Positions 3,101-33,123 of a DNA stretch of 64,000 nucleotides are shown piece by piece. A program made the position numbers and the translations under genes. The notes under the pieces were generated by a model. The model searched no databases. It was not told the origin of the DNA and saw only the letters and a list, made by a program, of their open reading frames with translations. Source of the DNA: Convolutriloba macropyga (lineage: Eukaryota); contig NC_134468.1 of NCBI RefSeq assembly GCF_964194025.1, forward strand, positions 44,020,001 to 44,084,000. Direction: 5' to 3'. How positions within the stretch are numbered: the first letter of the stretch is position 1; each line of letters starts with the position of its first letter.

Positions 3101-3981
3101 TGCTTGAGTAGACTAAAAGCGTCCTTTTGTTGTTTTTTAGTGAGAGTGCTGAACTTTGATTTAAACAACTGCATCAAAGTTTCAGCTGAATTGATGTCAA
3201 CAGCATTGAAACCAACAGTTTGAAGGACAGTCTCGTTGTAGGGTAAGATTTGCGCAATAGTTTGCGAAGGATATAAAGTTACGGAATTACAAGTAGGGTT
3301 AAGTACTCTTAGCCAAAATTCATTTTGAGAAACTGTTACAAGAGACGAGGCCACTAAAAGGGAGTTTAAACTGGTGAAACCTACGTGGGGCTCAACCAAA
3401 CCCACAGTCGCGTCAGACGAAGTACGCGAACTGCTTGAAGAAAACTTATGCGCATGATGTGACTTTAGATTACATTTTACGAGTGCTTCACTTCGAGGTG
3501 GAATAAGGAAACGCGAAGTTACAGAACAAAGCGAAGTCTCAGTTGTCGGAGAATTATCCTCAAACCACTGAGACAACGGACTGATACATTCCAGTACTGC
3601 GTCACCTACATCTAATAAACCCCGAGAGAAGTCTACTGCACATTTTTGTTTGTGTAGGAGATCAAAACCGACCACACAAGGAACACTGAGGTGGGCACAA
3701 ATGTAAAATTTGAAAGAAAACATGGGACCATTTTTAAACCAACGACATGGAAGCAAGCACATACCCTTAAATTGAAGCATAGAGCCATTTATGGCGGATG
3801 CTTGGATATCAGATGCTTCCAATGTAAGCGAAGGGCTAAAGTTGCTGAACTTGCCAAAAACATCGGCACGAATTACACTAATTGAAGCACCTGAATCAAT
3901 CAGGGCAGGCAGTATATTATCGGCGATTATTATTTTGGAAAGAAGCGACTGTATGCCAAAAATACGCTTGTTTTGTGCCAT
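112..3981 (-). CDS. pol: Pol polyprotein (aspartic protease, RT, RNase H, integrase), copy 1
   Basis: LIDSGAS protease; RMPMGL and YLDD in RT; TDAS..RELFA..TDH in RNase H; HHCC zinc site (H-x6-H, CATC); DILGP/SDNG/ERINRT DDE triad; GPH (GPY/F-like) motif. Confidence 0.98.
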   Translation of the reverse strand: MAQNKRIFGIQSLLSKIIIADNILPALIDSGASISVIRADVFGKFSNFSPSLTLEASDIQASAINGSMLQFKGMCLLPCRWFKNGPMFSFKFYICAHLSVPCVVGFDLLHKQKCAVDFSRGLLDVGDAVLECISPLSQWFEDNSPTTETSLCSVTSRFLIPPRSEALVKCNLKSHHAHKFSSSSSRTSSDATVGLVEPHVGFTSLNSLLVASSLVTVSQNEFWLRVLNPTCNSVTLYPSQTIAQILPYNETVLQTVGFNAVDINSAETLMQLFKSKFSTLTKKQQKDAFSLLKQFADVFATDKWDLGSCNLHKLRIQLKDDAQPSRVPYRSMNPSKRKDLKDKITKLQEKDLISPTHSEWAAPTVLVPKRDGSYRLVIDYRKLNAQTVKTSWPLPRISDILNNLEGSIFFSSLDLCSGFHQMEIDEEDRHLTSFIAPFGLYQWKRMPMGLCNAPGAFQRLMEIVLSGLTYEIVLVYLDDIIVFGRSFEEHIHRLQLVFQRIREANLKISPAKCSLFQTKLVFLGHVVSADGIHTDPAKIAAVEKYPVPQTIRQLRSFMGLVGFYRKFVLNFGLIANPLYQLMNKTTTFHWTADCQKAFEKLKTALVSAPILGFPNEKDQFVLCTDASLTGIGAVLSQKQKNGEKVIAYASKVLQKGQRNYSATKRELFAVVFFTSYFKEFLLGQKFQIITDHRALVWLYSFKEPDAIVARWLEKLSMFNFEIVHRPGKTIANADALSRLPPLNLSATSVTSVSSSPHFSETQDQDKTLSVVKSWCRTGEKPPRSLMLGRPSALQCYWQQFETLKIIDGVLYRLFQQLDGSTLFHQCCVPLNQVQKVLLQLHDSPASGHLGNKKTLDRVRQRFYWPGLKNDVDSWISGCATCQKRKNPKQSHQQEMQLWAFYEPFLCVSVDILGPLPESRLNEKFYKYILMIGDHFTRWFEAAPLQNIKAETICSTFLDQWVTRFGVPEYIHSDNGSQFTSRLFADMCNKLQLTSSRSTPYHPQGNAKVERINRTLEDGLAKYCAERHEVWSVHLQSFMMAYRSAVHESTGQSPFRLVFGKEMRMPVDMLYPTLPTPIVGHRDYVFQRLVESSTIFESVIQKNGWEMRRQKAIFDKKKHGPSYKEGDLVLLHSPVCSQGQTTKLKSFWSGPHCVKKVINQINFVLQDVKTQKQQIAHYDRIKPFTPSDQRLRRNRSNQTVRPSPQPIVPEDDDLVLVDLSERQASTSDRLQNTTNPTSSAIPSPPVFLSENQSGSGSTTVPQRPRRAVADHARHPGFFRLAYFDSDSDVE

Positions 3982-13975: not shown

Positions 13976-14467
13976 TATAACAACCCGGTAGGTATTAAAA
14001 AAAACGAACGTTTGAATTGCGAATGCGGGATTCGAGATTGGGTTGTTTTAGTTTTTTTTGTTGAAATTAACAACTTCAATTTAATTGATCTTACCTTGTT
14101 TTCTGTGCTCTATCTTTTTCTTTGGAAAATCGACAAAGTAAGTTTTCAGAATATTGAATTAAACTGAATAGGTTATTTATAAAAGCTTGTTGAGAAAAAG
14201 CTCAACTAACTGGATTGTAAGCAGAAAAGTCTCAAGTGTCGTTTGGGCGAAGGAACATGGCCAACGGAACAAATTCTCAATTAGCTCTTGAAACACGCAA
14301 AAGCTAAATAAATTGCGTGCCAAATTGTGTTATCAATAATAAATACACTATGGTCCAGTGGCACGAAAGTAAAACAAAGCTTGAGCGGAAAGGCGCTATA
14401 AGATTAATAGATTAATAGCTGGAACATTATACTGCCTAAGGAATAATAATGGGGTAGGGCTGTTACA
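13976..14467 (-). repeat. 3' LTR, copy 2 (492 bp)
   Basis: Differs from the 5' LTR by one substitution (plus strand aacatgg vs aacctgg) and one A-run length, by eye. Confidence 0.95.
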
Positions 14468-14503: not shown

Positions 14504-15496
14504 CTATTCTGTCTCCGAACCCGATGAGGACGATGAGCTCGAAGAACGCGAGCGAGGCTTCCTTTTTATTTTCTTGTTTTGTGGATTATGATTTCCCCGA
14601 AGTAATTGAGAACGCAGGGAGCGGAATTCGTTTTGGAGACCTCTGAGGTGACGACAGGTCGTTGAACAGGACTCAGAGGCAGACATAGTGTCCGTATTCA
14701 CCCCTGCATTGCGGACCTTAGAGGATTTTGGCTTTTTAGGTTGTTTTTTCTCCAGCGTAACAACCTTCGCGGAGAGCAGACGATTTGCCGTCCGAGAATC
14801 ATCTAGCATTTGATTCAGCTCGGAAATGCGAGCTTTTAGTTTGTCGATCTCATTGGTAGCCTGGTAAAGGTCACGCTCGTGAGCCTCACGAGATCGACGA
14901 AGTCGAATAAGTTGATCTCGAAGGTCGCGATTTTCAGCCGAGTTGTCAACAGGGATAGCGACTAGATCCGCAGGATCCAGCAGAGGCCTTCGCCTTGCAT
15001 TGTAAGGATCCTGAAGGCGAACTTTCCCATTGCGGTAAAATTCAACAACCCGCAACACGGCATGCAAATTTGCTGAATACACCAAACCGTTGAGGCGTAA
15101 GGGACCGTTGCGAGGTGGACCCATAGCCTGGCGTGAATTGCTTCCTTCGAGCGGGCTGCTTCTCGAACCCGAAGCTGCTGTTGCAGAAGCAGTCTGAACG
15201 ACTGGAATGTTTTTGGAAGGCGGACAAAAGATGATTGTCATTTCATCCGAAGAAGCAGATGAGCAGACATCCGTGTGCGGCTGAGGATCCCGATTTTGCG
15301 AGAGGTTTTGACGGAACTCAAGCAACTGATCACTTGCCCAGTTGCCAGTTATTCCTGTATCTGCTTGAGAGTCCATACTATCGTCCAGCAACGGAATTGC
15401 AGGCGAAGAAGCACCTGAAAGAAGATCTGTGTCCAGAAGAATATCAGGGCCTGGAGAAGCAGGCATAGTGTTGATTGACTCTGAGCTTGTCGACAT
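14504..15496 (-). CDS. ORF4: 330-aa accessory protein of unknown function, copy 2
   Basis: Intact ORF between env and the 3' LTR. Ser/Pro/acidic N-terminus, heptad coiled coil (LRDQLIRLRRSREAH...LEKK), basic clusters, Arg/Ser tail; ATG preceded by ttgttttag. Confidence 0.85.
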   Translation of the reverse strand: MSTSSESINTMPASPGPDILLDTDLLSGASSPAIPLLDDSMDSQADTGITGNWASDQLLEFRQNLSQNRDPQPHTDVCSSASSDEMTIIFCPPSKNIPVVQTASATAASGSRSSPLEGSNSRQAMGPPRNGPLRLNGLVYSANLHAVLRVVEFYRNGKVRLQDPYNARRRPLLDPADLVAIPVDNSAENRDLRDQLIRLRRSREAHERDLYQATNEIDKLKARISELNQMLDDSRTANRLLSAKVVTLEKKQPKKPKSSKVRNAGVNTDTMSASESCSTTCRHLRGLQNEFRSLRSQLLRGNHNPQNKKIKRKPRSRSSSSSSSSGSETE

Positions 15497-15670
15497 CTAA
15501 AACAAGCAATGTCAATCATTTGTGTACAGAAGTGCATCAGGGCTGCTAGTGATTGATGAACGAAAAGAAAAAAATTTTGAATGAAGCAAAAGACAAAAAT
15601 CAGAAAGCGGCAGTTTTTTTTTTTTTTTTCTAAGACAGAACACTATAGGCGATAAAGAGTCAACCTGTGC

Positions 15671-17725
15671 TTAAATTTTTGTTGTGTAGCGGGCAGAATT
15701 TAATTGTGCTGACGGATAAATTGAATCAACTATTACAGTGCGATTATCAGGGTTCCCATCAGTTTCATTGACAAGTTGGTCATGATTGACAGGCGCAGAT
15801 GCGTGTATATTATTTATGTGATTTTGAAGCATCTGCGTAAAAGGCGCAATGGGGTTAAGAAGCCGGAAAACTGTCCAGAAAGGAACTCCATGAGAAAGGA
15901 GCCTAAGCGCAAATACAAGTTTCAATATATAGATAAAGAGCCCTAGAAGCGCTAAAGTTGTTAGCGTAATTACAGTGCACCTCTCGGCGTAGTACCAACC
16001 ACCACTCGCAACAGATTGCAAATCAATCAAATATTTCCAAGCCGCCAAATTTTCTAGTTCTTCGGAAACGCTTGGATTAAAATGCATTAAACCAGGATGA
16101 GAATATTGGCTGCGAGGATCAAGATATACTTCTCGTCCCGAAATTGTTCGGCGCGAGTATTTTAGAACCCGAGCCTTTGCGCTCTGCCTCAAGTTCTGAT
16201 AAGAAAAGAGACCAGCGGTGTGTAATGAAGGTAAGTTATCACTAAAATCTAGATGGCTGAAAACACTTAGAGATTCGGGCGTACGTGCGACCGAATAATC
16301 ATCTCCATAGTGCATCCAGATGCCTTCAGACGTGCGGTACATGTAAGGTGCTATGGGATCACAAGCAGTCAAAGTATAGTTTGGATACACAACTTGTGTT
16401 ATCGGATTCATGAAACGAATTTGCGTATCATTGCCCAAAAGAACAGGAACTTCCTCTGTGCAGTAGGGGAAGTCTGCAATTCGAGCTTCGACTTTAACAC
16501 ATTTGTGGACGTAAAGAACAGCTCCCGCTTTTTCAGCATGTGTGCCTAACATGGAACCGGATCCGAGGAAGAGATTAGGATTGTCCAAGTTTGACGCTAA
16601 AGAAATGAGTCCTTTTAAGATCATCTGACGCGTATTGCAAATTTCATTTTTGATGAAATTTACAATTCGTTGACGCGAAAGATGCGCGTTGACATGCACA
16701 AACTCAATTTTTGTCCCATAGACTAAGTTTGGAATTGCATCTGTGTTGTAATCTATTTCCGGAAGTTGCTCCGTTATAGGTTCAATGACAAAGTAAACAC
16801 CAGAGTAGGTTGTTGGTCGGACCTTATATGAGCAAACACTAACAGTTGTGTTCAGAAGTTCTATATAAAAGACGCGGGAATCATCCCTGGAAGCAGTTTT
16901 TCCACTCAAATACATTGAATCAGCAGAAGAGATCTGAACGCCAGGATGCTCCGGAGAGAACTCAAATATTGATTTAATCTCACACTGACCGTAGAAATGC
17001 GGTAAATAGGTGATTGAGTCATGCTGAAAGTCAGAACCTGGAAAACTGCAGGACGTGGATCTTTCATTGGGATCTGTCAAGATTAAGGAACATGGAGAGC
17101 TGGTTTTGTCCAAAGTTGCGACTACTTTGCCGATGGTTAGTTTTGCGTTTATAACACCAGATGCGTGAATTTTCGATCCACCTGGGGTAATCCAATCCAC
17201 AGGCCAGGTGAAGTAAATTCCAGCTTTCTTGCCACCACGCATGAAAGAGTACGAATAGTCAAATACCTTGAAATTGCCAGGTTTGTATGGTCTACCATCA
17301 AACAAAAGATCCCCCTCAGTCATTTTAAAATTTTCATCTGCAAAACCTGGAAGTTTGAAATTGCGACCACTCCAAATTGCTCTGCAAACCCAAGTTTCTA
17401 ATGCATAGAAAGTAGGCACTAGGCGAGAATACTCTTTTAAATACACAGAATCATCAAATCGGGCAGAATGCGCTAATCCGGTAACAGCGTAAGAAGCTTG
17501 AAACATGCAAAAACTCATTTGAATATCAACTTCGGGCGCATGAAGAACCAAACCACCAAAAGTAATGTTTTTGGTGCTTAATTTATCAGGCGTACACTGT
17601 TCACTCGGAAGAAGCGAGTAAATTTTTGTTGTGAGAACTTCCTCGATGTCATAGCCTACAAGTGTAGAGAAACTGCAATCTACTAGGCAAGTGAACAACA
17701 GCAACACTTGCTGCACAAAGAGCAT
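15671..17725 (-). CDS. env: env-like type I membrane glycoprotein (chuvirus/gB-type-like), copy 2
   Basis: Hydrophobic signal peptide, Cys-rich ectodomain with N-glycosylation sequons (NIT, NTT, NDT, NYT), C-terminal TM (VITLTTLALLGLFIYILKLVFAL); block GAVLYVHKCVKV..C.EEVPV..FMNPIT..T..CDP..P..Y...G.W recalled as chuvirus-G-like. Confidence 0.88.
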   Translation of the reverse strand: MLFVQQVLLLFTCLVDCSFSTLVGYDIEEVLTTKIYSLLPSEQCTPDKLSTKNITFGGLVLHAPEVDIQMSFCMFQASYAVTGLAHSARFDDSVYLKEYSRLVPTFYALETWVCRAIWSGRNFKLPGFADENFKMTEGDLLFDGRPYKPGNFKVFDYSYSFMRGGKKAGIYFTWPVDWITPGGSKIHASGVINAKLTIGKVVATLDKTSSPCSLILTDPNERSTSCSFPGSDFQHDSITYLPHFYGQCEIKSIFEFSPEHPGVQISSADSMYLSGKTASRDDSRVFYIELLNTTVSVCSYKVRPTTYSGVYFVIEPITEQLPEIDYNTDAIPNLVYGTKIEFVHVNAHLSRQRIVNFIKNEICNTRQMILKGLISLASNLDNPNLFLGSGSMLGTHAEKAGAVLYVHKCVKVEARIADFPYCTEEVPVLLGNDTQIRFMNPITQVVYPNYTLTACDPIAPYMYRTSEGIWMHYGDDYSVARTPESLSVFSHLDFSDNLPSLHTAGLFSYQNLRQSAKARVLKYSRRTISGREVYLDPRSQYSHPGLMHFNPSVSEELENLAAWKYLIDLQSVASGGWYYAERCTVITLTTLALLGLFIYILKLVFALRLLSHGVPFWTVFRLLNPIAPFTQMLQNHINNIHASAPVNHDQLVNETDGNPDNRTVIVDSIYPSAQLNSARYTTKI

Positions 17726-17734
17726 CTAAACAAA

Positions 17735-20700
17735 TCACTCAACATCACTGTCTGAATCAAAATAAGCTAAACGGAAAAATCCTGGATGCCGTGCATGATC
17801 AGCAACAGCTCTACGCGGTCGTTGAGGAACTGTTGTGGAACCTGAACCACTTTGATTTTCTGACAAAAAAACTGGCGGTGACGGAATGGCGGAACTTGTA
17901 GGGTTAGTAGTGTTTTGTAACCTATCAGAGGTAGAAGCCTGTCTTTCAGATAAATCAACCAACACAAGATCATCGTCTTCAGGGACGATGGGTTGAGGAC
18001 TTGGTCTTACAGTTTGGTTGGAACGATTTCTGCGCAACCGCTGGTCTGATGGTGTAAAAGGTTTAATGCGATCGTAATGAGCAATCTGTTGTTTTTGAGT
18101 TTTGACGTCTTGTAGAACAAAATTAATTTGGTTAATAACCTTTTTCACGCAATGAGGTCCAGACCAGAAGCTCTTTAATTTAGGAGTTTGACCCTGTGAG
18201 CACACTGGTGAATGAAGAAGCACCAGGTCTCCTTCTTTATACGAAGGACCATGCTTCTTTTTGTCAAAGATAGCTTTTTGTCGGCGCATTTCCCATCCGT
18301 TTTTCTGAATTACGGACTCGAAAATGGTGGAAGATTCAACTAAACGTTGAAAAACATAATCCCGATGACCAACAATTGGAGTGGGCAATGTTGGATATAG
18401 CATATCAACAGGCATGCGCATTTCTTTCCCAAAAACTAATCGGAAAGGCGATTGACCTGTCGACTCATGAACTGCAGAACGATAGGCCATCATGAAAGAT
18501 TGAAGATGAACAGACCAAACTTCATGCCGTTCTGCGCAGTACTTTGCCAACCCATCTTCCAAAGTGCGATTTATGCGTTCCACTTTTGCATTTCCTTGCG
18601 GGTGGTAAGGAGTAGATCTTGAGCTGGTTAACTGCAGCTTATTGCACATATCTGCGAAAAGGCGCGATGTGAACTGCGAACCGTTGTCACTGTGAATATA
18701 TTCAGGTACACCAAATCGGGTGACCCATTGATCTAAGAAAGTGCTACAGATTGTCTCAGCCTTAATGTTCTGTAGGGGTGCAGCCTCGAACCAGCGAGTA
18801 AAATGGTCTCCAATCATTAGGATGTATTTATAAAATTTCTCATTCAACCGACTTTCTGGGAGAGGGCCAAGGATATCAACTGACACGCAAAGAAAAGGTT
18901 CATAGAATGCCCAGAGCTGCATTTCTTGCTGATGTGATTGTTTTGGATTCTTTCGTTTTTGACAAGTTGCACAACCTGAGATCCAGGAGTCCACATCATT
19001 TTTCAATCCTGGCCAGTAAAATCGCTGACGTACCCGATCAAGAGTTTTCTTATTGCCTAAATGTCCTGAAGCAGGTGAATCATGCAACTGAAGAAGAACT
19101 TTTTGAACCTGGTTAAGTGGAACGCAACACTGATGGAAAAGTGTAGATCCATCCAGTTGTTGAAATAGCCGGTACAAAACACCATCAATAATTTTCAATG
19201 TCTCGAATTGCTGCCAGTAACACTGCAAAGCAGATGGTCTACCAAACATTAAGGATCGAGGTGGTTTCTCACCTGTTCGACACCATGATTTGACTACAGA
19301 CAGAGTTTTATCCTGATCTTGCGTTTCTGAAAAGTGCGGAGACGAAGAAACAGATGTGACAGAAGTAGCAGATAAATTCAAAGGTGGTAATCTGGAAAGA
19401 GCATCAGCATTTGCAATAGTTTTTCCAGGCCGATGGACAATTTCAAAATTGAACATACTTAATTTTTCTAGCCAACGCGCTACTATTGCATCAGGCTCTT
19501 TGAACGAATAGAGCCAAACGAGGGCGCGATGGTCAGTAATTATCTGAAATTTTTGCCCAAGAAGAAATTCTTTGAAGTATGATGTGAAGAACACCACAGC
19601 AAAGAGTTCACGTTTCGTAGCCGAGTAGTTTCTTTGACCTTTTTGCAGCACTTTGCTAGCATATGCAATAACCTTTTCACCATTTTTCTGTTTTTGAGAT
19701 AGCACTGCGCCAATTCCAGTAAGCGATGCGTCAGTACAAAGAACGAATTGATCCTTTTCATTTGGAAAACCTAAGATTGGAGCGGATACTAGCGCTGTTT
19801 TCAATTTCTCGAAAGCTTTTTGGCAGTCTGCTGTCCAATGGAACGTTGTTGTTTTATTCATCAATTGGTACAGAGGGTTCGCAATCAAACCAAAATTGAG
19901 AACAAACTTTCTATAGAAGCCAACAAGGCCCATGAACGATCTTAACTGACGAATAGTTTGTGGAACTGGGTATTTCTCCACAGCTGCTATTTTAGCAGGA
20001 TCAGTGTGTATCCCGTCAGCAGAGACTACATGACCCAGAAATACTAACTTCGTTTGGAATAAGGAACATTTGGCAGGTGAAATTTTCAAATTTGCTTCCC
20101 GTATGCGTTGGAACACAAGTTGAAGACGATGTATGTGTTCCTCGAAAGAACGACCAAAGACTATAATATCATCAAGATAAACCAGGACAATTTCATATGT
20201 CAACCCTGATAAAACAATTTCCATTAGTCTTTGAAATGCTCCAGGGGCATTGCAAAGACCCATTGGCATCCGTTTCCACTGATACAGTCCAAACGGCGCA
20301 ATGAAAGAAGTAAGGTGTCGATCTTCTTCATCAATCTCCATTTGATGAAATCCACTGCAAAGGTCGAGGCTAGAGAAGAAAATGCTTCCCTCGAGATTAT
20401 TTAGAATATCTGATATGCGCGGAAGAGGCCACGATGTTTTGACTGTTTGGGCATTTAGTTTCCGATAGTCAATAACAAGACGATATGACCCGTCACGTTT
20501 CGGAACTAACACGGTTGGAGCTGCCCACTCGGAATGAGTAGGAGATATGAGATCTTTTTCTTGGAGTTTGGTTATCTTATCCTTGAGATCTTTTCTTTTA
20601 GAAGGATTCATTGATCTGTATGGCACTCGGCTAGGCTGGGCGTCATCTTTCAACTGAATACGCAGTTTATGCAAATTACATGAGCCTAGATCCCATTTGT

Positions 20701-21604
20701 CGGTAGCAAACACGTCTGCAAACTGCTTGAGTAGACTAAAAGCGTCCTTTTGTTGTTTTTTAGTGAGAGTGCTGAACTTTGATTTAAACAACTGCATCAA
20801 AGTTTCAGCTGAATTGATGTCAACAGCATTGAAACCAACAGTTTGAAGGACAGTCTCGTTGTAGGGTAAGATTTGCGCAATAGTTTGCGAAGGATATAAA
20901 GTTACGGAATTACAAGTAGGGTTAAGTACTCTTAGCCAAAATTCATTTTGAGAAACTGTTACAAGAGACGAGGCCACTAAAAGGGAGTTTAAACTGGTGA
21001 AACCTACGTGGGGCTCAACCAAACCCACAGTCGCGTCAGACGAAGTACGCGAACTGCTTGAAGAAAACTTATGCGCATGATGTGACTTTAGATTACATTT
21101 TACGAGTGCTTCACTTCGAGGTGGAATAAGGAAACGCGAAGTTACAGAACAAAGCGAAGTCTCAGTTGTCGGAGAATTATCCTCAAACCACTGAGACAAC
21201 GGACTGATACATTCCAGTACTGCGTCACCTACATCTAATAAACCCCGAGAGAAGTCTACTGCACATTTTTGTTTGTGTAGGAGATCAAAACCGACCACAC
21301 AAGGAACACTGAGGTGGGCACAAATGTAAAATTTGAAAGAAAACATGGGACCATTTTTAAACCAACGACATGGAAGCAAGCACATACCCTTAAATTGAAG
21401 CATAGAGCCATTTATGGCGGATGCTTGGATATCAGATGCTTCCAATGTAAGCGAAGGGCTAAAGTTGCTGAACTTGCCAAAAACATCGGCACGAATTACA
21501 CTAATTGAAGCACCTGAATCAATCAGGGCAGGCAGTATATTATCGGCGATTATTATTTTGGAAAGAAGCGACTGTATGCCAAAAATACGCTTGTTTTGTG
21601 CCAT
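17735..21604 (-). CDS. pol: Pol polyprotein, copy 2
   Basis: As copy 1, with two aa differences (SLMFGRP, GQTPKLK). Confidence 0.98.
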   Translation of the reverse strand: MAQNKRIFGIQSLLSKIIIADNILPALIDSGASISVIRADVFGKFSNFSPSLTLEASDIQASAINGSMLQFKGMCLLPCRWFKNGPMFSFKFYICAHLSVPCVVGFDLLHKQKCAVDFSRGLLDVGDAVLECISPLSQWFEDNSPTTETSLCSVTSRFLIPPRSEALVKCNLKSHHAHKFSSSSSRTSSDATVGLVEPHVGFTSLNSLLVASSLVTVSQNEFWLRVLNPTCNSVTLYPSQTIAQILPYNETVLQTVGFNAVDINSAETLMQLFKSKFSTLTKKQQKDAFSLLKQFADVFATDKWDLGSCNLHKLRIQLKDDAQPSRVPYRSMNPSKRKDLKDKITKLQEKDLISPTHSEWAAPTVLVPKRDGSYRLVIDYRKLNAQTVKTSWPLPRISDILNNLEGSIFFSSLDLCSGFHQMEIDEEDRHLTSFIAPFGLYQWKRMPMGLCNAPGAFQRLMEIVLSGLTYEIVLVYLDDIIVFGRSFEEHIHRLQLVFQRIREANLKISPAKCSLFQTKLVFLGHVVSADGIHTDPAKIAAVEKYPVPQTIRQLRSFMGLVGFYRKFVLNFGLIANPLYQLMNKTTTFHWTADCQKAFEKLKTALVSAPILGFPNEKDQFVLCTDASLTGIGAVLSQKQKNGEKVIAYASKVLQKGQRNYSATKRELFAVVFFTSYFKEFLLGQKFQIITDHRALVWLYSFKEPDAIVARWLEKLSMFNFEIVHRPGKTIANADALSRLPPLNLSATSVTSVSSSPHFSETQDQDKTLSVVKSWCRTGEKPPRSLMFGRPSALQCYWQQFETLKIIDGVLYRLFQQLDGSTLFHQCCVPLNQVQKVLLQLHDSPASGHLGNKKTLDRVRQRFYWPGLKNDVDSWISGCATCQKRKNPKQSHQQEMQLWAFYEPFLCVSVDILGPLPESRLNEKFYKYILMIGDHFTRWFEAAPLQNIKAETICSTFLDQWVTRFGVPEYIHSDNGSQFTSRLFADMCNKLQLTSSRSTPYHPQGNAKVERINRTLEDGLAKYCAERHEVWSVHLQSFMMAYRSAVHESTGQSPFRLVFGKEMRMPVDMLYPTLPTPIVGHRDYVFQRLVESSTIFESVIQKNGWEMRRQKAIFDKKKHGPSYKEGDLVLLHSPVCSQGQTPKLKSFWSGPHCVKKVINQINFVLQDVKTQKQQIAHYDRIKPFTPSDQRLRRNRSNQTVRPSPQPIVPEDDDLVLVDLSERQASTSDRLQNTTNPTSSAIPSPPVFLSENQSGSGSTTVPQRPRRAVADHARHPGFFRLAYFDSDSDVE

Positions 21605-21661
21605 GGGTTATTAAAAATGGAGAACAAACTCTTTCAAGGTGGACTATGGCGATAGAAGAAG

Positions 21662-22678
21662 CTATCGGTTAGAGTATGGTTTTGACTCTGGGCAATTACG
21701 TCGCTGATGTTGAGAAGAACCACAGTTCCAACAATTTTTGCAATTATTTTTAGTATGACCTTTACGATTACAACCATAACAAATAGTTGGTCCGGTGAAC
21801 CTAACTTTTCTTTCATTACTGATTGAACGACTGTGTGAATTGTCAAGAAACGTTTTTCGCGGAGAGGAAGATTGACGACGTTCTCCGTGTTGCGATGGGC
21901 TACGAGAGAAAGTAGGTGACTTGCGTTTGTTAAACGGAGACAATCTGTAAGGAGAGTTGCTCCTGCGACCCGATTTTTTGTTCATCGGACGAGAACGTGG
22001 TTGGTAACTAACTTGTCCGGCCATGAGTTTATCAACTTTACGCGAAAGTGCTTCAATGGAACTCACAGAAGTAGATGAAGGCGCAGTCTCATTTGCATTT
22101 GCTTCAAGACGGTAAATTGCGTCGAAGTGGAGTGCTGATTCTAAGGCCGCGTTAATGTCAGCCGGCTTGTTCTTTCTTAACTCTACCCTTACATGAATAT
22201 TGTGAAGGCCATCAATGAAAGATTGAAGCACAATATGGTCTCTGATTGCCTGCGTGTCTTGGGGATAAGCCTTATTAGCTAGAAGTTTGAGCTCAGCTAA
22301 AAATTCACTTACTTTTTCGGACTCGCCTTGAATACGTTTTGCAAGGGATGACCGAAAAAATTCAGGAGGTTCCTGATATTGGCGCAAAAATTGCTTTTTA
22401 AGCTCTGAATAATCATTTTTTGTTGCGTCATCTAATGACTGATAAAATTCGATAGCACTGCCTCGTAAGCGCAAGGGAAAAATAGTATGACGCTTATCAA
22501 TGTAAACCTGTTGACCAGCGCTGTCGTGTTGCGGAGTTCCATCACTATTGAATGCTTTTTTAAGCCAATTTTGTAACGAACTCAAGAGTTCGAATTGTGT
22601 TATATAGGCCTGAATATCACTTGTTCCGTTAAAAGGCTCCGGTAGAAGAAGTTTAGCTTCCAGAGCTGCGTCAGCCAT
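21662..22678 (-). CDS. gag: Gag, copy 2
   Basis: Same protein as copy 1. Confidence 0.95.
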   Translation of the reverse strand: MADAALEAKLLLPEPFNGTSDIQAYITQFELLSSLQNWLKKAFNSDGTPQHDSAGQQVYIDKRHTIFPLRLRGSAIEFYQSLDDATKNDYSELKKQFLRQYQEPPEFFRSSLAKRIQGESEKVSEFLAELKLLANKAYPQDTQAIRDHIVLQSFIDGLHNIHVRVELRKNKPADINAALESALHFDAIYRLEANANETAPSSTSVSSIEALSRKVDKLMAGQVSYQPRSRPMNKKSGRRSNSPYRLSPFNKRKSPTFSRSPSQHGERRQSSSPRKTFLDNSHSRSISNERKVRFTGPTICYGCNRKGHTKNNCKNCWNCGSSQHQRRNCPESKPYSNR

Positions 22679-23255: not shown

Positions 23256-23746
23256 TATAACAACCCGGTAGGTATTAAAAAAACGAACGTTTGAATTGCG
23301 AATGCGGGATTCGAGATTGGGTTGTTTTAGTTTTTTTTGTTGAAATTAACAACTTCAATTTAATTGATCTTACCTTGTTTTCTGTGCTCTATCTTTTTCT
23401 TTGGAAAATCGACAAAGTAAGTTTTCAGAATATTGAATTAAACTGAATAGGTTATTTATAAAAGCTTGTTGAGAAAAAGCTCAACTAACTGGATTGTAAG
23501 CAGAAAAGTCTCAAGTGTCGTTTGGGCGAAGGAACCTGGCCAACGGAACAAATTCTCAATTAGCTCTTGAAACACGCAAAAGCTAAATAAATTGCGTGCC
23601 AAATTGTGTTATCAATAATAAATACACTATGGTCCAGTGGCACGAAAGTAAAACAAAGCTTGAGCGGAAAGGCGCTATAAGATTAATAGATTAATAGCTG
23701 GAACATTATACTGCCTAAGGAATAATAATGGGGTAGGGCTGTTACA
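23256..23746 (-). repeat. 5' LTR, copy 2
   Basis: Direct repeat; followed by the ATAT target duplication. Confidence 0.95.
23359..23460 (-). promoter_or_regulatory. LTR signals: TATA box TATAAATA (23460-23453), splice donor AAG|GTAAGA (exon end 23374), poly(A) signal ATTAAA (23364-23359)
   Basis: Motifs read on the minus strand in U3-R-U5 order; present in all five LTRs. Confidence 0.6.
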
Positions 23747-32130: not shown

Positions 32131-33123
32131 CTATTCTGTCTCCGAACCCGATGAGGACGATGAGCTCGAAGAACGCGAGCGAGGCTTCCTTTTTATTTTC
32201 TTGTTTTGTGGATTATGATTTCCCCGAAGTAATTGAGAACGCAGGGAGCGGAATTCGTTTTGGAGACCTCTGAGGTGACGACAGGTCGTTGAACAGGACT
32301 CAGAGGCAGACATAGTGTCCGTATTCACCCCTGCATTGCGGACCTTAGAGGATTTTGGCTTTTTAGGTTGTTTTTTCTCCAGCGTAACAACCTTCGCGGA
32401 GAGCAGACGATTTGCCGTCCGAGAATCATCTAGCATTTGATTCAGCTCGGAAATGCGAGCTTTTAGTTTGTCGATCTCATTGGTAGCCTGGTAAAGGTCA
32501 CGCTCGTGAGCCTCACGAGATCGACGAAGTCGAATAAGTTGATCTCGAAGGTCGCGATTTTCAGCCGAGTTGTCAACAGGGATAGCGACTAGATCCGCAG
32601 GATCCAGCAGAGGCCTTCGCCTTGCATTGTAAGGATCCTGAAGGCGAACTTTCCCATTGCGGTAAAATTCAACAACCCGCAACACGGCATGCAAATTTGC
32701 TGAATACACCAAACCGTTGAGGCGTAAGGGACCGTTGCGAGGTGGACCCATAGCCTGGCGTGAATTGCTTCCTTCGAGCGGGCTGCTTCTCGAACCCGAA
32801 GCTGCTGTTGCAGAAGCAGTCTGAACGACTGGAATGTTTTTGGAAGGCGGACAAAAGATGATTGTCATTTCATCCGAAGAAGCAGATGAGCAGACATCCG
32901 TGTGCGGCTGAGGATCCCGATTTTGCGAGAGGTTTTGACGGAACTCAAGCGACTGATCACTTGCCCAGTTGCCAGTTATTCCTGTATCTGCTTGAGAGTC
33001 CATACTATCGTCCAGCAACGGAATTGCAGGCGAAGAAGCACCTGAAAGAAGATCTGTGTCCAGAAGAATATCAGGGCCTGGAGAAGCAGGCATAGTGTTG
33101 ATTGACTCTGAGCTTGTCGACAT
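32131..33123 (-). CDS. ORF4 accessory protein, copy 3
   Basis: 330 aa; one change versus copy 2 (DQSLEF vs DQLLEF). Confidence 0.85.
   Translation of the reverse strand: MSTSSESINTMPASPGPDILLDTDLLSGASSPAIPLLDDSMDSQADTGITGNWASDQSLEFRQNLSQNRDPQPHTDVCSSASSDEMTIIFCPPSKNIPVVQTASATAASGSRSSPLEGSNSRQAMGPPRNGPLRLNGLVYSANLHAVLRVVEFYRNGKVRLQDPYNARRRPLLDPADLVAIPVDNSAENRDLRDQLIRLRRSREAHERDLYQATNEIDKLKARISELNQMLDDSRTANRLLSAKVVTLEKKQPKKPKSSKVRNAGVNTDTMSASESCSTTCRHLRGLQNEFRSLRSQLLRGNHNPQNKKIKRKPRSRSSSSSSSSGSETE

Follow-up and report, generated by a model that had tools for sequence, protein, structure and literature searches.

A conserved fourth gene after env in a Gypsy element of Convolutriloba macropyga, with a possible role in controlling the element's RNA in the nucleus

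In this study, we examined a 64,000-nt stretch of the Convolutriloba macropyga genome (assembly GCF_964194025.1, NC_134468.1 positions 44,020,001-44,084,000, forward strand; hereafter the window), which carries on its minus strand a 9.8-kb Gypsy element with the gene order gag, pol, gB-type env and a further open reading frame (ORF), here called ORF4. ORF4 encodes 330 aa from its ATG (14504..15496, minus strand) and is the fourth and final gene of the element, preceding the 3′ long terminal repeat (LTR). We find that it is under purifying selection, that its product is predicted to combine a small beta-barrel with a long coiled-coil-like helix, and that it is likely made from a spliced mRNA. 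Our leading, still tentative reading is that ORF4 is a conserved accessory gene whose product acts in the nucleus to control RNA of the element itself, in the manner of Rev or CERV though unrelated to them.

Results

ORF4 starts 174 nt past the env stop, in the context TTTTAG|ATG, and ends 36 nt short of the 3′ LTR. A sequence-only reading of this stretch had already described an intact 330-aa ORF with its own acceptor-ATG, without naming a strand, and this description is borne out on the minus strand. The sequence features which it had listed are likewise present: the alternating-hydrophobic segment that it quoted corresponds to residues 136-178, the basic clusters KKQPKKPK and KKIKRKPR to residues 250-257 and 308-315, and the RSRSSSSSSSS tail follows. 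Searching the 1.18-Gb host assembly returned 123 matches to ORF4, among them 41 near-identical, full-length copies (99-100% identity), all but one of which, 40 in number, are free of stop codons. At residue 58, the copy at 14504-15496 has Leu, where the other window copy and all nine aligned homologs have Ser.

Selection on ORF4 was assessed against 24 older loci, 22 of them with 40 or more ORF4 codons that could be aligned to the window copy. In 21 of these 22, pairwise dN/dS lay at 0.09-0.40, and in one it was saturated; pooled over the 22 old copies it was 0.22 for ORF4 (env 0.15, pol 0.25, gag 0.15), comparisons that are not independent tests, since the old copies share history. Differences found in half or more of the old copies, taken to mark the replicating lineage, numbered 94 synonymous and 52 non-synonymous in ORF4 (ratio 0.18; env 0.08, pol 0.16, gag 0.08), and 94 of these 146 differences fell at third positions. 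Private differences, by comparison, gave a dN/dS of 1.02, a plain contrast despite the shared history of the copies. Along the protein, lineage dN/dS was 0.07 in the barrel (residues 125-184) and 0.09 in the coil, rising to 0.21 in the N-terminal 60 residues and 0.70 in the tail. ORF4 is under purifying selection. Of the three circumstances that the sequence-only reading had named as undoing its proposal, two were checked, an ORF that is unconserved or neutrally evolving and a captured fragment of a host gene; the first is contradicted by dN/dS well below 1 and by intact homologs at 30-49% identity, and for the second, Pfam and wide protein searches gave no host source.

Structurally, an AlphaFold model built on a nine-row alignment (first row, the Ser58 form) shows a disordered stretch up to about residue 120, then a barrel at residues 132-182 (14951..15103, minus strand; pLDDT 83-90), a long coiled-coil-like helix at 187-251 (14744..14938, minus strand) and a shorter helix at 279-301. 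The disordered N-terminus and the coiled coil of about 65 aa anticipated from sequence thus reappear, the latter as a helix of exactly 65 residues. With five strands and a 3-10 turn ahead of the last strand, the predicted barrel corresponds to the definition of an SH3-like small beta-barrel, and the early guess of an SH3/Tudor/KOW-like fold gains support from both the prediction and the fold matches (Z 6.3-7.2 over 46-62 residues, rmsd 1.1-3.5). The top match was R67 DHFR (Z 7.2, 55 residues, 1.9 A), with Spt5 KOW, NusG KOW, UHRF1 Tudor, PHF1 Tudor and PWWP domains all inside one Z unit; Foldseek ranked eL14 and eL6 first at E above 0.01, a library of viral structures yielded generic small barrels only, with nothing at E 0.001 or better, and the best scores in the ESM Atlas, 0.82 and 0.75, were uninformative. 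As far as the model goes, the structure search establishes the fold class of the barrel only.

Within the barrel, Y154, G157, R160, R170 and D177-L178 are invariant, and aromatic columns are confined to 140, 153 and 154. Methyl readers of the Tudor and PWWP classes are defined by an aromatic cage, and KOW domains by a sequence motif with an invariant Gly together with contact to RNA or polymerase; no Tudor, PWWP or KOW profile of Pfam matched ORF4. Given the invariant R160 and R170 and the few aromatic columns, nucleic-acid binding would fit the modelled barrel better than methyl-lysine reading. That the barrel might be a duplicated C-terminal SH3-like domain of integrase was considered and found unsupported, hhalign scores of 8.0-10.6 from shallow six-sequence profiles being no better than those of controls.

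Outside the barrel, residues 1-131 (15104..15496, minus strand; low pLDDT) form a disordered acidic N-terminus, with a net charge of -5 to -15 over the first 120 aa and a W-A-[S/D/E] motif at residues 53-55 that is present in 7/7 proteins checked of the window's type (A-type) and of the sister-family type described below (B-type). The long helix gave sub-threshold matches only in Pfam and the PDB, the Pfam scan of the whole protein producing nothing beyond such coiled-coil matches, and the start of the coil, tried as a bZIP, likewise found weak coiled-coil matches only. Residues 277-301 (14594..14668, minus strand) comprise, by alignment and model, a C-x3-C-R-H motif followed by a second amphipathic helix; the motif occurs in 4/5 A-type proteins and in none of the B-type. 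The tail (14507..14575, minus strand) consists of a basic cluster followed by poly-Ser and an acidic end, a layout kept in 7/7 proteins, and we take it to resemble a nuclear localisation signal (NLS) and CK2 sites.

For splice signals, 25 older loci were examined, of which 11 align at the ORF4 start, 14 at the env start and seven at the donor. A putative acceptor, TTTTAG (15497..15502, minus strand), abuts the ORF4 ATG, and its AG is kept in 10 of the 11 aligned old copies; as these carry CAG where the window copy has TAG, it is the AG and not a stop codon that is kept. AG|ATG at the env start is kept in 14/14. A putative donor, AAG|GTAAGA (23368..23376, minus strand), lies in the 5′ LTR upstream of the primer-binding position, with AAG|GT kept in five of seven aligned old copies, and no ATG stands between the TATA-like box and this donor. 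A conserved AG before the ORF4 ATG and a conserved LTR donor make a spliced ORF4 mRNA likely. Moreover, with the donor ahead of gag, conserved acceptors and no intervening ATG, the full-length RNA would carry an intron, and the shortest of the spliced mRNAs would be the one for ORF4. Four read runs of unrecorded kind from one study showed flat depth, about twofold on the LTR, and no joint between the LTR donor and the acceptor of either env or ORF4; they look like DNA and are uninformative on expression.

Protein searches with ORF4 gave nine matches among 4,511 candidates, a profile gave 11 among 8,000, and a wider search gave 25 among 1.84 billion representatives; no named or cellular homolog was among these 25, bar one weak repeat protein. 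The weakest match of the wide search (P0031, E 2.8e-4) has 851 aa, with repeats of about 42 residues that resemble small-barrel units by eye. Four intact outside families align with ORF4 at 30-49% identity. Two of them, searched against the host genome, matched the window's family only, and three of the four include members whose contigs measure 8.4-9.3 kb, roughly the element length minus one LTR. Between P0032 and P0071 the barrel sequence is nearly unchanged; for P0007, viral contigs held no relative.

A sister family in the same genome (family B; the window's own is family A) is 72% identical in RT-RNase H and 61% in env, and has a 392-aa ORF after env. This ORF was not linked to ORF4 by tblastn, whereas profile comparison yielded a collinear alignment that spans 100 columns of their barrels and coils (probability 61%, P 7.9e-5); a barrel-centred cut of the profiles scored 16.6, against 14.1 for the best of 60 shuffles. 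An acidic N-terminus with W-A-[S/D/E] and a tail that is basic and then Ser/acidic are common to both types. Homology of the 392-aa ORF to ORF4 is probable.

A further 20 loci were sampled from other env-bearing families of the host genome. In a distant Gypsy lineage, whose RT is about 30% identical to that of the window's element, no further ORF separates a terminal ORF of 293-587 aa from the 3′ LTR in 3/3 mapped elements, and this terminal ORF has 135 matches in the genome. In its model, long helices come after a Tudor/KOW-class barrel that bears an insertion and scores Z 6.6 at best; sequence comparison did not connect the terminal ORF with ORF4. In many elements of this lineage, env and the barrel-coil gene are separated by about ten small ORFs. 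In view of this like layout and these long accessory cassettes, our sample suggests that errantivirus surveys built on three ORFs overlook much gene content. Most env-bearing Gypsy families sampled here have ORFs downstream of env, and the notion that a sense ORF after env is unusual for Gypsy elements holds only in part: such ORFs are common among these families, and PMC6431247 mentions them.

Individual loci illustrate this diversity. Elements of about 19 kb from the distant, multicopy lineage (for instance at C6:9.72-9.74 Mb) have about ten small sense ORFs after env and then, ahead of the 3′ LTR, a barrel-plus-coil ORF of 370-414 aa; their cassette includes six or seven ORFs of 76-94 aa, paralogous-looking by eye, and three Cys-rich ORFs of 125-132 aa with weak RING matches, and three further small ORFs lie ahead of gag. 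In a related family at C2:74.48-74.49 Mb, gag and pol are fused, and besides env there is one 587-aa ORF with homology to the terminal ORF of the distant lineage (38% over 124 aa) and no small-ORF cassette. At C10:8.01-8.02 Mb, an LTR-flanked 7.7-kb copy holds env, cassette and an intact terminal ORF, and neither gag nor pol. An abundant family (one locus and 12 similar) has an env of 897-902 aa, preceded by three ORFs of 103-109 aa and followed by two of 105-108 aa.

The window's element itself is a young, env-carrying Gypsy retrotransposon. Its 5′ LTR (491 bp; 23256..23746, minus strand) matches the 3′ LTR (492 bp; 13976..14467, minus strand; 4-bp target duplication ATAT) at 489/490 aligned bases, with one base different and one indel. 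gag (338 aa; 21662..22678, minus strand), which matches retrotransposon Gag in Pfam, encodes a capsid domain and zinc knuckles and lacks a long N-terminal extension. pol (1289 aa; 17735..21604, minus strand) has the order PR-RT-RH-IN, with Pfam placing RT at residues 367-526, RNase H at 590-718 and integrase at 828-1020. env (684 aa; 15671..17725, minus strand) starts at AG|ATG and encodes a gB-type (class III) fusion glycoprotein (PF24664, E 1.8e-20, 72.9 bits against a cut-off of 27). With its LTR pair and target duplication, RT-RNase H-integrase order and intact gB-type env, the element is an errantivirus in the operational sense that the text of PMC13524379 gives the term. Genome-wide, a first look with the gB-type env profile brought up 2,275 candidates, 68 of which were scored, and elements with such an env are very abundant in this host.

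The pol genes of families A and B each begin at a separate ATG right past an in-frame stop, 50-60 nt beyond the gag stop (window 21604-21662; positions 3443-3497 of the family B locus L037). A gag-pol frameshift fusion is therefore impossible, and no conserved splice acceptor was found between the gag stop and the pol ATG. A 17.6-kb host segment is tandemly triplicated at 99.9% identity (window 1-43364; C1:44,010,491 onward), each unit comprising one element and host flank, and the window thus contains a second ORF4 copy (32131..33123, minus strand) in the next unit. This triplication is either a recent host amplification or an assembly artefact.

Discussion

Under the reading that we tentatively prefer, a splice joining the LTR donor with the acceptor at ORF4 would yield a short ORF4 mRNA; the protein would enter the nucleus through its basic clusters, oligomerise through the coil and bind RNA with its Arg-rich barrel, and an export or splice-control step would let unspliced genomic RNA accumulate and leave the nucleus. 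The basic cluster and Ser/acidic tail in 7/7 homologs are consistent with such a role, as is the presence of Spt5/NusG and ribosomal-protein KOW domains among the tied fold matches, and CERV sets a precedent for it within a Gypsy element (PMC10309623).

Several observations weigh against it. We found no link of ORF4 in sequence or fold to Rev, Rex, Tas or CERV, and the barrel matches are generic, tied among KOW, Tudor, PWWP and R67 DHFR, with none reaching a Z of 8. A scan for one classical leucine-rich nuclear export signal (NES) pattern found no conserved match outside the barrel; matches in 4/5 A-type proteins fall in the barrel only, others vary from homolog to homolog, and helical NES classes are indistinguishable from heptads. 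The generality of the splicing scheme is weakened by the sister family, where ORF4 starts in the context TAGA-ATG and the LTR shows no evident counterpart of the donor at the corresponding place. Most copies of the distant-lineage barrel-coil ORF lack an AG directly before the ATG, and the abundant family with the 897-902 aa env had no barrel-coil ORF in the one element scanned; either the gene or its splicing scheme is therefore not universal. Internal promoters can also serve downstream genes, as the Tor elements of Oikopleura show (PMC4402516).

Nearly as likely is that ORF4 activates transcription from the LTR or counters its silencing in the manner of Tas, the barrel binding DNA, chromatin or the elongating polymerase, the coil dimerising and the acidic, Trp-containing N-terminus recruiting co-activators. 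The conserved Trp motif in that disordered N-terminus would suit this possible role, as would Spt5 KOW, PHF1/UHRF1 Tudor and PWWP among the tied fold matches, and the site between env and LTR, together with a separately initiated pol, recalls foamy viruses as outlined in PMC7828637. Nevertheless, ORF4 has no homology to Tas and belongs to no recognised DNA-binding family, its bZIP and bHLH-zip matches being coiled-coil noise at E above 0.01.

We consider it unlikely that ORF4 is a particle or trafficking protein replacing a matrix domain, its coil tethering the short Gag, which consists of capsid only, to either the gB-type Env or the cytoskeleton. Gag does begin nearly at the capsid domain in both the window's element and the distant lineage, and the gene adjoins env and is kept with it in the LTR-flanked copy without gag and pol. 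Yet the model contains neither a transmembrane nor a signal segment, the late-domain motifs PTAP, PPxY and YPxL are absent from 9/9 proteins, the tail is NLS-like, and one env family with an equally short Gag N-terminus lacks the gene.

Rather unlikely, too, is an antagonist of host silencing, for example a Tudor-like decoy for proteins of the PIWI pathway or of chromatin silencing. Such a role could draw on the Tudor domains among the tied fold matches in both lineages, on the RING-like accessory ORFs of neighbouring lineages and on the divergence of ORF4 between families, which far outpaces that of RT (72%) or env (61%) and leaves the homolog undetectable by tblastn. Within families, however, the barrel is the most constrained part and, between P0032 and P0071, all but static; a coarse dN/dS test saw no positive selection, and aromatic columns are few for a methyl-arginine cage. 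That ORF4 is a mere passenger, a recently captured host fragment or a neutral open frame, is very improbable and in practice excluded: although it belongs to no known family, dN/dS of 0.18-0.22, the third-position excess, the intact homologs and the near-complete lack of a cellular counterpart in the wide search contradict it.

The finding touches on the balance of spliced and unspliced RNA and the escape from host silencing in env-bearing Gypsy elements, matters for which few cases are known; CERV was the sole Gypsy-encoded export factor turned up in the literature searched. As a fourth gene that is under selection, has a definable structure and belongs to a family whose near-identical intact copies number about 40, ORF4 provides a testable candidate. 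More broadly, and with considerable doubt, we raise the possibility that enveloped Gypsy elements of this host group kept one ancient trans-acting barrel-plus-coil regulator, last before the 3′ LTR, across lineages of about 30% RT identity, one of which added about ten accessory genes (tandem paralogs of 75-95 aa, RING-like). ORF4 would then found an undescribed regulator family, independent of Rev, Tas and CERV.

Comparison with known systems

The element is of a known kind, and extra ORFs after env are known in principle. Literature searched by title and abstract, with subscription papers and repeat databases outside its scope, held no description of the ORF4 gene; the ORF4 family, its barrel-plus-coil design and the recurrence of that design in distant lineages appear undescribed. 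The errantiviruses with HSV/gB-type env surveyed in PMC13524379 are likewise intact, multicopy LTR-gag-pol-env Gypsy elements with a gB-like env, defined there by three ORFs, whereas the window's element has a fourth. The main text of that survey does not mention ORF4, accessory, splice, SH3, Tudor or coiled, and in the first of the 34 parts of its element table the first columns contain no extra ORFs.

Foamy viruses, as presented in PMC7828637, have an accessory gene (tas/bel) between env and the 3′ LTR and a pol unfused to gag, much like the window's element; they are Retroviridae expressing tas from an internal promoter, whereas ORF4 sits in a Gypsy element and shows no homology. The ORF3s of bdelloid LTR elements (PMC5408684) and the accessory domains of Burro (PMC6431247) are family-specific extra ORFs of invertebrate Gypsy elements, some with coiled-coil or RING features. 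These mostly replace env or sit in the polyprotein and are often recognisable enzymes, unlike ORF4, which is separate, follows env and has no family. Gypsy-10_Ec32 of Ectocarpus is likewise a Gypsy element with a small barrel of the Tudor/KOW class, in that case described as a C-terminal Tudor domain and recognised as such (PMC12477816); ORF4 stands alone, with a coil and without a Pfam Tudor match.

CERV of C. elegans Cer1 is made from a spliced mRNA, is needed for export of genomic RNA and depends on a phosphoserine (PMC10309623). It replaces env, shares exons with gag and has 517 aa with H, M and G-protein-like domains (PMC10309623). ORF4 differs in following an intact env, in having its own ATG after an in-frame stop and in a model of barrel and helices only, and no homology between the two was seen. 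Their likeness lies elsewhere: both are Gypsy-encoded and lineage-restricted, are coded ahead of the 3′ LTR and carry a candidate NLS alongside helical and Cys-containing parts, and the mRNA of CERV is spliced, as that of ORF4 likely is (PMC10309623).
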